A stretch of DNA of 64,000 nucleotides from Octopus vulgaris (GCA_951406725.2 OX597817.1:107942001-108006000), one strand, 5' to 3'; positions 49,980-64,000 are shown, counted from the stretch's first letter. Numbers and translations: made by a program. The notes: generated from the letters alone by a model not told the origin.

Positions 49980-50342
49980 GCCAAACAAGGCATTTGAAAG
50001 ATACACTTAGATACAATTTTTAGAACTTTATACATGCTGGACTTCGGTTGAGAGTTCTGTATCTAGTTCTGGGAATTGTGTTTTGTAAACGACAGACTTT
50101 GCTGATGATCTCGCAGATGTTTATGTATCCATATACGTAAATATTAACAAGTGAAACTAATTCGTACATAGGTAATCGGTTTTTTATTTTTTTCGTATAT
50201 TTTCATTTGTCTTGCTTATTTTTACACTTTGGTTTTTTGCTGAGATTTTCTTGAGAACACATTCTTCGTGGAAAATGGCGATTTTGACGTCTATATCTAG
50301 CATAAAGGCTGTCCACTTTAGTGGTCAGTCCTCTAAATTTTG
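49980..50342 (+). mobile_element. Diverged solo member of the 505-bp HHR family (HHR at 50097-50171)
   Basis: Shares GGCATTTGAAAGATA, CTGATGA...GAAACTAA..GTACAT and TTTGACGTCTATATCTAGCAT with the 505-bp unit; ends at (TA)n. Confidence 0.8.
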
Positions 50343-51111
50343 TATATATATATATATATATATATATATATATATATATATTATAAGTATGTATGGGGAG
50401 ACTCGTTTGTATAGTTCTCTCTCCGTAAATTATTTAATGTCGTTGCATTTTGGTTGCGTTGTTTACTTACATTTAAAAATCTTTCTCAAAATGACTCCGG
50501 ATCGGTATGACTTTTCATGCTGTGATATGAAAGTTATGCAAACAAAGTTTATTACACTTACGTTTTTGTAGTTTCTTACAATGACGAAATGTTTTAATTA
50601 CTGCTCACAATTCTTGCTTAAGGGCAATTCACTTACTCATGAATGTATCTAGTCGGCAGTTCCAATAAATGTTGGATAGTCTATTATACGTATAGTCGCA
50701 ACTGATGATTAGTGAATTAATTATTTACTTTGTATCTAATAAAAGTGTCCAGTTATGCGATTCTCTTCCTAAATGAGAGGGGTGAGCCATCTTGGTTCTG
50801 TGCCTCCATTTCGATCAATTTCTTTTACTTCCATCTTGTTGGCGAATGATAATTGCAACACATTACATTAACACATTCAATGTCCAAAAGTTGTGAAGTT
50901 CAATCTACATTAAGTGTTCTTTATTAACTTGATTGAACACGGATTCTTTTATCGATTCATGTCATTACCGCTCTTTTGTGTAATGTTTTGTCAATGTAAA
51001 TGGTTGAGATTTATTTAATCTTGCTGTGAGCTGTTTTGAGTGGTTTATATTCTTCACTCAATTTCTGTTCGCCCATAAATAGCACTCCGAAAAATAACTC
51101 GATCTTTTTAT

Positions 51112-51530
51112 TTTATCTGTTTATCATTTGATTGCGCCCATGCTACGACACCACCTTGAAGAACTTGTCGTCGAATTAATCTACTTCTGTACTTAGTTTT
51201 TAAGCCTGGTAATTATTGTATCGGTCTCTTTTTTGCCGAACTATAAAGTTATGGGATATAAACGAACCAACAAGTTGTCAAGTGGTGGTTGACACACACA
51301 CACACACACACACACACGCACGCACACACGCACACACACACACACACACACACACACACACACACACACACACACACACACACACACACAAATACACGAC
51401 GGGTTTATTTCAGTTTCCGTCTACCAAATCCAATCACAAGGCTTTGGTCGACCCGAGGTTATTATAGAAGACACTTGCCCAATGTGTCATGCAGTAGACT
51501 GAACCCCGTGGAGCCTTGTGGTTGGGCTGC
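51112..51530 (-). mobile_element. SINE family A
   Basis: Family consensus with internal (CA)n. Confidence 0.8.
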
Positions 51531-59970: not shown

Positions 59971-62391
59971 AGATATATTCAAATGTAATAGGCTGAACTC
60001 CATGCACGCGATATTTCGGTATCGTGTTTGCATTTAGTCCAGCAAATTACATTTATAACGGACCATGCTGATGATGGCTGCAGTTTTCCTTGCGGAAAAT
60101 AACAGCTGAAACTAAGTTAGTACATGGGTAATTATTTTATTTCGTATATTTTTCACTTGTTTATTGCTATGGTTTTGTGTTGAGTTTGATCTGAGAACAT
60201 AATATTTTGTGGAGAATGACAATTTGACGTCTATATCTAGCATGTTGACTGTCCACTTTTCGTGTTCAGTCCTTAATTGGTATATATAAATATTTTAATC
60301 TTCGGATTCTTTTTTAATATGCTAGACCACTAGTCTTAATTGATAAATATCAATTTCTACCCTTAATTAATTTTATATAAATAAATGTTCTCTAACCGAT
60401 AAATTAACTGCTGCTAATTATTAGCTGCAGGCTAGTTTTCTCGGGTCTCAACGCGCCAAAGTAAAGGCATTTGAAAGATATATTCAAATGTTATAGGCTG
60501 AACTCCATGCACGCGATATTTCGGTATCGTGTTTGCATTTAGTCCAGCAAATTACATTTATAACGGACCATGCTGATGATGGCTGCAGTTTTCCTTGCGG
60601 AAAATAACAGCTGAAACTAAGTTAGTACATGGGTAATTATTTTATTTCGTATATTTTTCACTTGTTTATTGCTATGGTTTTGTGTTGAGTTTGATCTGAG
60701 AACATAATCTTTTGTGGAGAATGACAATTTGACGTCTATATCTAGCATGTTGACTGTCCACTTTTCGTGTTCAGTCCTTAATTGGTATATATAAATATTT
60801 TAATCTTCGGATTCTTTTTTAATATGCTAGACCACTGGTCTTAATTGATAAATATCAATTTCTACCCTTAATTAATTTTATATAAATAAATGTTCTCTAA
60901 CCGATAAATTAACTGCTGCTAATTATTAGCTGCAGGCTAGTTTTCTCGGGTCTCAACGCGCCAAAGTAAAGGCATTTGAAAGATATATTCAAATGTTATA
61001 GGCTGAACTCCATGCACGCGATATTTCGGTATCGTGTTTGCATTTAGTCCAGCAAATTACATTTATAACGGACCATGCTGATGATGGCTGCAGTTTTCCT
61101 TGCGGAAAATAACAGCTGAAACTAAGTTAGTACATGGGTAATTATTTTATTTCGTATATTTTTCACTTGTTTATTGCTATGGTTTTGTGTTGAGTTTGAT
61201 CTGAGAACATAATCTTTTGTGGAGAATGACGATTTGACGTCTATATCTAGCATGTTGACTGTCCACTTTTCGTGTTCAGTCCTTAATTGGTATATATAAA
61301 TATTTTAATCTTCGGATTCTTTTTTAATATGCTAGACCACTGGTCTTAATTGATAAATATCAATTTCTACCCTTAATTAATTTTATATAAATAAATGTTC
61401 TCTAACCGATAAATTAACTGCTGCTAATTATTAGCTGCAGGCTAGTTTTCTCGGGTCTCAACGCGCCAAAGTAAAGGCATTTGAAAGATATATTCAAATG
61501 TAATAGGCTGAACTCCATGCACGCGATATTTCGGTATCGTGTTTGCATTTAGTCCAGCAAATTACATTTATAACGGACCATGCTGATGATGGCTGCAGTT
61601 TTCCTTGCGGAAAATAACAGCTGAAACTAAGTTAGTACATGGGTAATTATTTTATTTCGTATATTTTTCACTTGTTTATTGCTATGGTTTTGTGTTGAGT
61701 TTGATCTGAGAACATAATCTTTTGTGGAGAATGACGATTTGACGTCTATATCTAGCATGTTGACTGTCCACTTTTCGTGTTCAGTCCTTAATTGGTATAT
61801 ATAAATATTTTAATCTTCGGATTCTTTTTTAATATGCTAGACCACTGGTCTTAATTGATAAATATCAATTTCTACCCTTAATTAATTTTATATAAATAAA
61901 TGTTCTCTAACCGATAAATTAACTGCTGCTAATTATTAGCTGCAGGCTAGTTTTCTCGGGTCTCAACGCGCCAAAGTAAAGGCATTTGAAAGATATATTC
62001 AAATGTAATAGGCTGAACTCCATGCACGCGATATTTCGGTATCGTGTTTGCATTTAGTCCAGCAAATTACATTTATAACGGACCATGCTGATGATGGCTG
62101 CAGTTTTCCTTGCGGAAAATAACAGCTGAAACTAAGTTAGTACATGGGTAATTATTTTATTTCGTATATTTTTCACTTGTTTATTGCTATGGTTTTGTGT
62201 TGAGTTTGATCTGAGAACATAATCTTTTGTGGAGAATGACGATTTGACGTCTATATCTAGCATGTTGACTGTCCACTTTTCGTGTTCAGTCCTTAATTGG
62301 TATATATAAATATTTTAATCTTCGGATTCTTTTTAATATGCTAGACCACTGGTCTTAATTGATAAATATCAATTTCTACCCTTAATTAATT
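59971..62391 (+). mobile_element. Tandem array of a 505-bp HHR-containing unit (~4.8 copies); retrozyme-like
   Basis: Units start at 59971, 60476, 60981, 61486 and 61991; few substitutions between copies; ends at (TA)n. Confidence 0.93.
60063..60127 (+). ncRNA. Canonical type I hammerhead ribozyme (also 60568-60632, 61073-61137, 61578-61642, 62083-62147)
   Basis: CCATG CTGATGA T GGCTG(..TTTTCC TTGC GGAAAA..)CAGCT GAAA CTA AGT TAG TA CATGG; GUA cleavage after 60122. Confidence 0.88.
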
Positions 62392-62418
62392 ATATATATA
62401 TATATATATATATATATA

Positions 62419-64000
62419 TCAACAATCAAGGAACGGCCATAATAGGCCATTCACCCACTAGAAATAACAGCCAAAGCTTCAACCGCAAATAAAAGTCAAT
62501 TCTGTAAACCAGGAGAAAATTTAAAAACATTTACCCTGTAATTTCTTATACGATATACCGTTTCATCTGCTGATTAATGGTAAACTAACCTGATTAAATT
62601 AAATCAAGCCAATCTTCCACAGGCCCTCAGATTCGTCAGTAAGAAATAGCCCAAGTCGGAACAGATATTTTCACGAGGCATTTCCGACCTTGCCAAGTTT
62701 ATATCTGACCTAAAATTTTCAAATCGTCGCACTCGCGCCAAATTTATCGGCAGCAAATAAATATAAGCCGTCGATTCCATTACGGAATTAACCAGAAAAT
62801 TCATAATTAATCAATATAGGGTGGCAAAAAAAATTTTGTAGAATTCTTTTGCCACCAGCGGCCTAGTAGGAAAAAATTAAATAGTCATAGACCATTTTTA
62901 AGTTTAACATCAACAATCAAGGAACGGCCATAATAGGCCATTCACCCACTAGAAATAACAGCCAAAAGCTTCAACCGCAAATAAAAGTCAATTCTGTAAA
63001 CCAGGAGAAAATTTAAAAAACATTTACCCTGTAATTTCTTATACGATATACCGTTTCATCTGCTGATTAATGGTAAACTAACCTGATTAAATTAAATCAA
63101 GCCAATCTTCCACAGGCCCTCAGATTCGTCAGTAAGAAATAGCCCAAGTCGGAACAGATATTTTCACGAGGCATTTCCGACCTTGCCAAGTTTATATCTG
63201 ACCTAAAATTTTCAAATCGTCGCACTCGCGAAATATATTTATTTGCTGCCGATAAATTTGGCGCGAGTGCGACGATTTGAAAATTTTAGGTCAGATATAA
63301 ACTTGGCAAGGTCGGAAATGCCTCGTGAAAATATCTGTTCCGACTTGGGCTATTTCTTACTGACGAATCTGAGGGCCTGTGGAAGATTGGCTTGATTTAA
63401 TTTAATCAGGTTAGTTTACCATTAATCAGCAGATGAAACGGTATATCGTATAAGAAATTACAGGGTAAATGTTTTTTAAATTTTCTCCTGGTTTACAGAA
63501 TTGACTTTTATTTGCGGTTGAAGCTTTGGCTGTTATTTCTAGTGGGTGAATGGCCTATTATGGCCGTTCCTTGATTGTTGATGTTAAACTTAAAAATGGT
63601 CTATGACTATTTAATTTTTTCCTACTAGGCCGCTGGTGGCAAAAGAATTCTACAAAATTTTTTTGCCACCCTATATTGATTAATTATGAATTTTCTGGTT
63701 AATTCCGTAATGGAATCGACGGCTTATATTTATTTGCTGCCGATAAATTTGGCGCGAGTGCGACGATTTGAAAATTTTAGGTCAGATATAAACTTGGCAA
63801 GGTCGGAAATGCCTCGTGAAAATATCTGTTCCGACTTGGGCTATTTCTTACTGACGAATCTGAGGGCCTGTGGAAGATTGGCTTGATTTAATTTAATCAG
63901 GTTAGTTTACCATTAATCAGCAGATGAAACGGTATATCGTATAAGAAATTACAGGGTAAATGTTTTTTAAATTTTCTCCTGGTTTACAGAATTGACTTTT
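62419..64000. mobile_element. 491-bp HHR-containing unit: ~1.65 minus copies, then an inverted tandem run on plus that continues past the window end
   Basis: Minus arm 62419-63230, plus arm from ~63234; period 491 bp. Confidence 0.92.
63352..63458 (+). ncRNA. Type I hammerhead with ~60-nt stem II insertion (also + 63843-63949; - 62541-62647 and 63034-63140)
   Basis: ATTTCTTA CTGACGA ATCTG...CAGAT GAAA CGG TATA TCG TA TAAGAAAT; 8-bp stem I, GUA site. Confidence 0.85.

Follow-up and report, generated by a model that had tools for sequence, protein, structure and literature searches.

Introduction

Published retrozyme units are 170–400 nt long, and in stringent pairs of long and short interspersed nuclear elements (LINEs and SINEs) the autonomous and the non-autonomous element have a common 3′ end. 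Here we describe a word of about 20 nt that recurs near the 3′ end of several non-coding repeat families of Octopus vulgaris, read from a 64,000-nt stretch of its genome (GCA_951406725.2 OX597817.1:107942001-108006000; hereafter the window, numbered from its first letter), and which may be a signal for copying by Penelope-type enzymes. Metazoan retrozymes of the non-long-terminal-repeat (non-LTR) kind are non-coding units with type I hammerheads arranged head to tail; they co-occur with, and have been proposed to depend on, Penelope-like elements (Cervera and de la Pena 2020, PMC7229834; Li, Clavereau and Pollet 2026, bioRxiv 10.64898/2026.07.22.740005). Penelope-like insertions are described as having a pseudo-LTR (pLTR), an inverted 5′-truncated arm, a tail of 30–40 bp and a bias for (TA)n (Craig et al. 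2021, PMC8557442). According to the same source, Naiad, Hydra and Neptune end at (TA)n, the supplement includes Naiad_Obim, Naiad_Ovul and Hydra-1_Obim, all (TA)n-preferring, and the 3′ ends of autonomous and non-autonomous Chlamys elements are similar (PMC8557442); retrozymes of Xenopus match the termini of Penelope-like elements (bioRxiv 10.64898/2026.07.22.740005). The passages covered of PMC7229834 and bioRxiv 10.64898/2026.07.22.740005 mention neither a short word common to families nor octopus elements, and literature searches returned no short word common to retrozyme families and no octopus retrozymes. How Penelope-like elements choose their templates, and how retrozymes are copied, are open questions of the field.

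The octopus repeats resemble metazoan retrozymes in being non-coding, head-to-tail units with candidate type I hammerhead motifs, and differ from them in length (505 bp in family A, 491–493 bp in family C and 480 bp in family B, all above the 170–400 nt of published units). With the Penelope-like insertions of Craig et al. (PMC8557442) they have in common partial tandems, inverted arms, 5′ truncation and (TA)n ends; unlike Penelope-like elements, they have no open reading frame (ORF) for a reverse transcriptase (RT) or endonuclease, and the 20-nt word is missing from every autonomous tail examined. As in pairs with a shared 3′ end (LINE/SINE pairs, and the Chlamys elements of PMC8557442), a conserved 3′ region in non-coding elements is retained by 5′-truncated copies, which is the logic of an RT acting in trans; in contrast to such pairs, an autonomous partner with the same tail was sought and none was found in the loci examined.

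A common word in four repeat blocks

Positions 49800–64000 of the window, read by eye for repeat blocks, contain four of them (A1, B, A and C), non-coding and embedded in (TA)n microsatellites. The word they carry can be written as TTTG[AG]C..[CT]TA.[TA]TCTAG, or in extended form as TTTGRC..YTA.WTCTAG(CA). This pattern has ten exact matches in the window, all within 50283–63542 and all inside the repeats, and two further copies in family B are one base off (TTTAAC... at 53056; ...TCTAA at 52804–52821, minus strand). A 20-mer version of the word, allowing up to three mismatches, matched the window four times and none of 100 shuffles. The features of the repeats are as follows.

50283, 53536, 60223, 60728, 61233, 61738, 62243 and 63525, plus strand: starts of exact word matches (regular expression)
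62458–62475 and 62949–62966, minus strand: exact word matches (regular expression)
about 49988–50339, plus strand: A1, solo unit (sequence reading)
50102–50166, plus strand: A1 hammerhead-like type I core, CTGATGA ... GAAA, predicted cut after 50166 (own detector script and reading)
50283–50300, plus strand: A1 word copy TTTGACGTCTATATCTAG (regular expression)
about 50330, plus strand: A1 end word CTCTAAATT
50327–50380, plus strand: A1 3′ end ..CCTCTAAATTTTG plus the adjoining (TA)n at 50343–50380
52757–52975, minus strand: family B inverted truncated arm, with the one-base word variant TTTGACATCTACTTCTAA at 52804–52821; adjoins (TA)n at 52537–52753
52990–53595, plus strand: forward arm of family B, roughly 1.2 copies of its 480-bp unit
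53056–53073 and 53536–53553, plus strand: word variant and exact word of the family B forward arm, which also has GGCCGCTGGTG at 53165 and CTTAATT at 53580
53387–53440, plus strand: family B degenerate hammerhead, core TGGAAGA
53613–53660: (TA)n beyond the family B 3′ end
59968–62390, plus strand: family A tandem array, 505-bp units, about 4.8 copies
60068, 60573, 61078, 61583 and 62088, plus strand: family A CTGATGA cores
60223, 60728, 61233, 61738 and 62243, plus strand: family A word copies
62243–62260, plus strand: word of the last family A unit; predicted cut after 62142, 100 nt upstream
53580, 62292, 62354 and 62381, plus strand: CTTAATT end words preceding (TA)n
62391–62418: (TA)n that the A array and the inverted C arm both abut with their 3′ ends
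62420–63244, minus strand: family C minus arm, units of about 491–493 bp, with words at 62458–62475 and 62949–62966 and hammerhead cores starting at 63132 and 62639; its end is ..CCTTGATTGTTG, adjoining (TA)n
63245–64000, plus strand: family C plus arm, which continues past the window edge
63353–63450 and 63844–63941, plus strand: hammerheads of the family C plus arm, which also has the word at 63525–63542, CTTGATT at 63570 and GGCCGCTGGTG at 63628
63570 (plus strand) and 62424 (minus strand): CTTGATT end words preceding (TA)n

Word copies are spaced by 505 (A), 491/493 (C) and 480 nt (B). They start 100 (A), 116 (A1), 95 (B) and 74 nt (C) downstream of the predicted hammerhead cut, compared with the 75–120 nt given in the first-pass annotation that had proposed the motif, and lie 56–60 nt upstream of the first end abutting (TA)n (in the last A copy, 149 nt upstream of the end used there). 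The CTT(A/G)ATT-like end words before (TA)n also stand where that annotation had placed them, and the blocks it had reported as common to the 480- and 491-bp units are real: within the window, GGCCGCTGGTG is confined to 53165, 63628 and 62853 (minus strand), about 103–109 nt past the word in both B and C, and is followed downstream by TATTTGCT at 53236 and 63731.

The build of the insertions is of the Penelope type: B and C have inverted arms (in C, two mirror images made of 491–493-bp units), and A is a tandem array that ends at (TA)n. Every family A unit has three alternative CTTAATT ends (in the last copy at 62292, 62354 and 62381), and family A units end at any one of them. The word is retained in 5′-truncated and inverted-arm copies, and it invariably sits in the portion that 5′-truncated copies keep. 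There is no ORF of at least 150 aa within 59968–64000 or 50000–53700, so that the head-to-tail units are non-coding. Tandem Repeats Finder, run with a period limit of 500, missed the 505-bp array of family A.

Type I hammerhead cores together with helices I and III, the strands of helix I being complementary, can be read by eye in A, A1 and C; in the window copy of family B the core is degenerate (TGGAAGA), and all hammerheads of these units have long inserts in helix II. Our own script finds the hammerheads of A1 and C and misses that of A, in which helix II is bulged; in the first 49 kb of the window, on both strands, it gives three matches that we read as chance. No hammerhead match to Rfam was obtained for the whole window at gathering score or for 49000–64000 at E≤10, and the ribozyme calls therefore rest on our own reading and a simple script.

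A bounded island in many families

Across the genome (2.8 Gb), the word has 11,549 + 11,582 = 23,131 matches, as against 11 + 18 = 29 for the reversed pattern. The first 30 matches in contig order were taken as a sample, each with 1.5 kb on either side, and an ungapped conservation profile was built from 28 independent loci (L023 and L027 were excluded as second arms of L022 and L026). Relative entropy is 0.0–0.5 bits at positions −30 to −1 and at most 0.6 bits from +21 on, and conservation drops to background within 2 nt on each side of the word. The positions just past the regular expression are C19 in 19/28 loci and A20 in 21/28, and those left free inside it vary (T7 in 21/28, G8 in 13/28). 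The word is thus a sharply bounded sequence island of about 20 nt. It is also present outside the families from which the pattern was written, namely in family D (L001–L003, L020, L100, L101 and L108–L111), in L019 and L024, and in an old repeat that we call class ii. At least six families with unalignable flanks carry it.

Kinship of the window families was assessed by local alignment of the stretches from cut to end against 500 dinucleotide shuffles. The alignment of A with A1 extends for about 160 nt (z 32.7), which makes them one superfamily, so that the four units represent three families. The A–B alignment is significant, if marginally (1/500 shuffles as good); those of A–C (148/500), A1–C (386/500) and B–C (422/500) are not. 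Over whole units, chains of shared collinear 7-mers are ten long for A–B (0/300 shuffles), eight for B–C (7/300) and five for A–C (158/300). Given these alignment and chain tests, distant common descent is plausible for A–B and for B–C, and kinship of A and C is undetectable by either test. The descent of all these families from one lineage, as first proposed, thus stands for A and A1, which are homologous, and is in keeping with the weak collinearity of A–B and B–C; for A–C these tests detect no kinship.

A single ancestor could have left the word as a functionless relic, its best-preserved piece by chance or through low mutability. The homology of A and A1, the weak whole-unit collinearity of A–B and B–C (0/300 and 7/300) and the occurrence of GGCCGCTGGTG at the same offset in B and C would all follow from this. 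Local alignment, however, gave nothing significant for A–C and B–C. With their flanks at background, at least six families that cannot be aligned retain 15 positions of the pattern, and the free positions 7 and 8 vary. Chance retention of one 20-mer in many lineages is hard to credit, an argument that is weakened by the choice of loci by the word itself; on balance we regard a passive relic as improbable.

Carriers of the word with and without ribozymes

Of the 30 sampled loci, 13 are of the (TA)n type: A-like (L004, L022/L023 and L026/L027), B-like (L005, L019 and L024), C (L030) and D (L001–L003 and L020), the last without a hammerhead. The other 17 belong to class ii, an old, diverged and hammerhead-less repeat whose copies share about 70–110 nt around the word. 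The class ii element is about 220 nt long, of which the word-bearing block takes up about 85 nt. Two copies lie in the window.

29844–30062, plus strand: class ii element, an 85-nt block at 29855–29939 followed by the word block at 29976–30060, with TTTGGCAGCTATTTCTTGCA at 30002
37097–37152, minus strand: decayed class ii block (nhmmer profile, E 1.5e-5)

Inverted arm pairs that retain the word side are found at L022/L023, L026/L027, L106 and L107 as well as in B and C of the window; of the 30 sampled loci, 4 are inverted pairs. The strict script finds a hammerhead up to 300 nt upstream of the word at 1/30 sampled loci (L005), and by eye about 4/30 have one (L005, with L019, L024, which is degenerate, and L030, which is truncated). 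At gathering score Rfam has no match in the window or at 20 word loci, and at E≤1 the 20 class ii loci gave microsatellite-driven microRNA and small nucleolar RNA noise, none of it at the word. The word lies outside the ribozyme, and families with and without a ribozyme carry it. We therefore abandon the initial description of it as a hammerhead-linked element: most copies are 5′-truncated or come from ribozyme-less families, with 17/30 sampled loci in class ii and a strict detector that fires at 1/30.

The prevalence of class ii raises the alternative that the word was originally its own, and that the hammerhead families took the piece up by recombination or template switching, its role being unrelated to ribozymes and possibly to Penelope-type copying. 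Only about 70–110 nt around the word are common to the 17 class ii loci, tandem arrays of a 107-bp period occur in which TACATA-type spacers separate the class ii blocks (L047, L048 and L049 contain 29, 13 and 6 copies, each within 3 kb), the sequence upstream of 29844 in the window copy is unique in the genome, and a (TA)5 or longer run within 260 nt downstream, present at 13/30 loci, is found at 11/13 non-class-ii loci and at 2/17 class ii loci, all of which would suit such an origin. The class ii block, however, ends in ..CCTCATTGGCTCA|TA, much like the end of A (..CCTTAATTGG|TA) and that of C (..CCTTGATTG), which argues for a single type of 3′ end and against the capture of something unrelated, and we think a class ii origin unlikely.

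Several other candidates were discarded. A group of copies termed E (L096, L098, L099, L112–L114 and L126–L128) could have been a LINE tail in antisense, since an RVT_1 fragment lies on the other strand at a distance of 1.3 kb; five other copies of that RT family (14,793 candidates) lack the word, the homology of the RT family stops about 840 nt short of it, and the E copies are segmental duplicates of at least 6 kb within 3.3 Mb of one contig. That LINE-like family (L126, 2878–3159, minus strand), with 14,793 candidate places and open frames of up to 1282 aa, is among the most abundant coding repeats that we encountered. The word as a coding C-terminus (FGCYF*) fails since the upstream frames are closed, the long frame at L013 being a tandem-repeat artefact with spurious Pfam hits. 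By reading, a primer-binding site for a tRNA 3′ end could use the TGG of the word, yet position 5 is A (TGA) in 14/28 loci, and a 3′ splice site with TTGAC as branch point fails in the TTTGGC variants.

Sequence or shape

What is recognised could be a folded RNA domain, with hairpins and an outer stem, of which the word would be the core. L049, a copy from an array, is predicted to form two inner hairpins closed by an outer stem, GAGGGAGA/UCUCCCUC (z −1.95); an inner hairpin is preserved in L050 by a double change (CUGCUA/UAGCAG to UUACUA/UAGUAG) and, by reading, in family C via G–U pairs. The 16 nt upstream of the word pair with its positions 4–12, leaving UUUG in the loop, and cognate upstream flanks pair better than swapped ones (−4.30 vs −3.21 kcal/mol; 7/2000 permutations as low), in a test whose 18 representatives are not independent and whose pairing register differs between families. 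That the word-pairing stem lies in different registers across families speaks against a common domain. For the alignments of 20 class ii tails and of ten family D tails RNAalifold predicted no pairs (0 in each), which does not refute a fold, given that the underlying MAFFT alignments are not structure-aware. Fold z-scores of 12 tails (200 shuffles each) are mixed: +0.44 for A, −1.31 for A1, +1.77 for B, −2.27 for C, −3.15 for L001, −0.55 for L002, −2.02 for L109, +1.22 for L005, +0.20 for L024, +0.45 for L019, −1.95 for L049 and −0.04 for L050, that is, 4/12 at or below −1.95 and 5/12, A and B included, above 0. A fold recognised by shape thus appears quite improbable. We read the observations as conservation of sequence, with at most a small local hairpin; they do not support a common fold. 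The first-pass annotation had seen a small hairpin after the word, which the minimum-energy folds of A, A1 and C contain and which is not clear in B; its second functional RNA element, taken as a conserved fold, finds no backing in the two RNAalifold alignments or the z-scores.

In family A, the 3′ half of the word and the next bases (62254–62263, CTAGCATGTT) are complementary, with one G–U pair, to AATATGCTAG in the extended tail (62335–62345); A1-like copies (L103 and L027) have CTAGCATAT and ATATGCTAG. Either a long-range helix or a short inverted duplicate could account for the complementarity.

Conservation of sequence rather than fold would also be expected if the word acted at the level of DNA, as the site of a GIY-YIG nuclease or in second-strand priming or resolution. 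Its core CTA....TAG is palindromic (by reading), and GIY-YIG homing nucleases have long recognition sequences (PMC8557442). The targets of insertion are, however, (TA)n and not the word; we rate action at the DNA level as very unlikely.

A candidate signal for Penelope-type copying

Our preferred reading, to which we give a probability of roughly 0.45, is that the word is a cis-acting signal for Penelope-type copying, common to several parasite families by descent or exchange. A Penelope-like RT or endonuclease, acting in trans, would need the word in the 3′ part of its template RNA, and selection for mobilisation would maintain it there. The word could have reached separate families by descent, by template switching or by both. 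At the 3′ end of the RNA, (UA)n read-through would pair with the nicked (TA)n target, and the word would meanwhile bind protein. In favour of this reading count the genome-wide enrichment, the presence of the word in families that played no part in writing the pattern, its sharp bounds, its fixed distances from cut and end, the Penelope-type build, the tails that continue into (TA)n in contigs guessed to be RNA, the better pairing of cognate flanks, and the similar ends of the Chlamys elements (PMC8557442) and of the Xenopus retrozymes (bioRxiv 10.64898/2026.07.22.740005).

Several results weigh against this reading. The statistics of the window taken alone are thin, A–B being the only one of the A, B and C pairs that passes the shuffle test. 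The 100% conservation of the word is partly ascertainment, because loci were chosen by the exact word, and the flanks alone are unbiased. Targeting to (TA)n does not obviously cover class ii, the majority class. The RNAalifold alignments and the mixed z-scores described above belong here too. In 0/49 Penelope-type GIY-YIG loci does the tail proper (stop codon to first (TA)n) contain the word, at up to two mismatches or by an nhmmer tail profile, a count that is not genome-wide since the search covered a small part of the GIY-YIG candidates. The tail of Naiad is preserved in L123 and lacks the word. Finally, tblastn with the 765-aa ORF2 of L043, a Penelope-like locus described below, detected no remnant of a Penelope-like RT, either within the window or at 40 word-centred loci (±1.5 kb).

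The search for an autonomous helper started from 6136 candidate places for Pfam GIY-YIG, of which 148 matched and 52 were read (L031–L042 and L056–L095). All but three of these (49/52) are Penelope-type C-terminal endonuclease ends, in at least seven sequence families; the remaining three, L056, L068 and L080, are GIY-YIG genes of other kinds. All sampled Penelope-like families of this genome end at (TA)n, their 3′ untranslated regions (UTRs) being about 60 to 1000 nt long and their last words C/T- and then A/T-rich (for example ..TCCTTTTATTAATAT|). Word matches at L065, L073, L074, L082 and L094 lie past that (TA)n or on the other strand, and are therefore neighbouring insertions. The published consensus file of Naiad, Hydra and Chlamys contains none of TTTGGCTGC, TTTGGCTGT and CTATTTCTAG, although its 70-letter line wraps could hide a match. 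A degenerate 12-codon pattern from the Naiad_Ovul protein had no match in the genome; a 35-nt primer from the Naiad consensus led to five decayed copies, with one exact match. To the eye the family C tail looked like that of Naiad, a homology that we rejected: judged by 1000 shuffles, none of the local alignments of C, A, B, L024 and class ii with the Naiad tail is significant. In L003, a family D copy, 22 nt did score against that tail (0/1000 shuffles), which is a lead at most. The expectation that the word would turn up in pLTRs or tails of autonomous Penelope-like elements was thus not borne out in the 49 GIY-YIG loci, in one Naiad copy or in the published Naiad, Hydra and Chlamys consensuses. 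Within the loci covered, the repeats do not simply copy a helper's tail, and recognition of the word by an RT or endonuclease is something we infer.

Some features of the autonomous elements may be noted in their own right. L043 represents a young Penelope-like family with intact ORFs of 346 aa (1945–2985) and 765 aa (3293–5590), of which many copies have a 781-aa frame; its 3′ UTR of about 1 kb has internal repeats, ends in ..TTTTTTACAA|(AT)n and includes a stretch that resembles a hammerhead but has an altered core (TTGATAAGGTTC..GAACCGAAAC). A second Penelope-like family (tails of L059, L064, L066, L071 and L087) carries the hammerhead CTGAAGA..GAAAGTAC some 190 nt upstream of the (TA)n at which it ends, and the start of its helix II resembles that of the B-like unit in L005. 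At L125 (about 46–100), roughly the last 26 nt of Naiad are repeated directly behind (TA)n and ahead of a Naiad copy, which matches the 'tail' extension of Penelope-like insertions.

A bolder version would make the block of about 85 nt around the word a portable, self-sufficient handle for retrotransposition, exchanged by ribozyme-bearing and ribozyme-less parasites and used in trans with Penelope-type enzymes whose own RNAs lack it. The block would then be copied alone into the genome, as tail-only copies and as the 107-bp arrays. We find this rather improbable; if true, the parasites would possess, through evolution or capture, a word that binds the enzyme better than what their hosts have. 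A short bounded word in many non-coding families offers, in any case, a definite target for mutation in assays of mobilisation or binding, which makes the question of template choice testable; an in vitro system is what Craig et al. call for (PMC8557442).

Contigs covering family A

Contigs from four studies, the runs of which are RNA by guess only, cover family A; no run with the unit is recorded as RNA. In two runs from different studies contigs begin at 62143/62144, the base after the predicted cut, which is a weak hint that the ribozyme works, and the summed contig depth is higher downstream of that cut. One contig of 535 nt (505 + 30) fits a cycle or a tandem, contigs being unable to show circles. 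At the loose ends of the contigs, related tails continue into (TA)n.

Run X6 has a 311-nt contig over 61915–62138 with 26 differences from the window, and the changes in that run are mostly T>C and A>G (16 and 10 run-wide); RNA editing may be behind this, or a copy that has diverged. In two runs, contigs join 62261/62262 directly to 62331 and so omit 68–69 nt of the tail, the short side being 22–23 nt; a subfamily that lacks the first end could explain this, as could a fold-back artefact.

Neighbouring features

Two DNA transposon remnants lie elsewhere in the window.

58174–59581, minus strand: frameshifted pogo/Tigger-type transposase, two overlapping frames with DDE_1 and HTH_Tnp_Tc5 domains
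43375–44202, plus strand: mariner-type transposase fragment, an open frame with HTH_48 and Transposase_1

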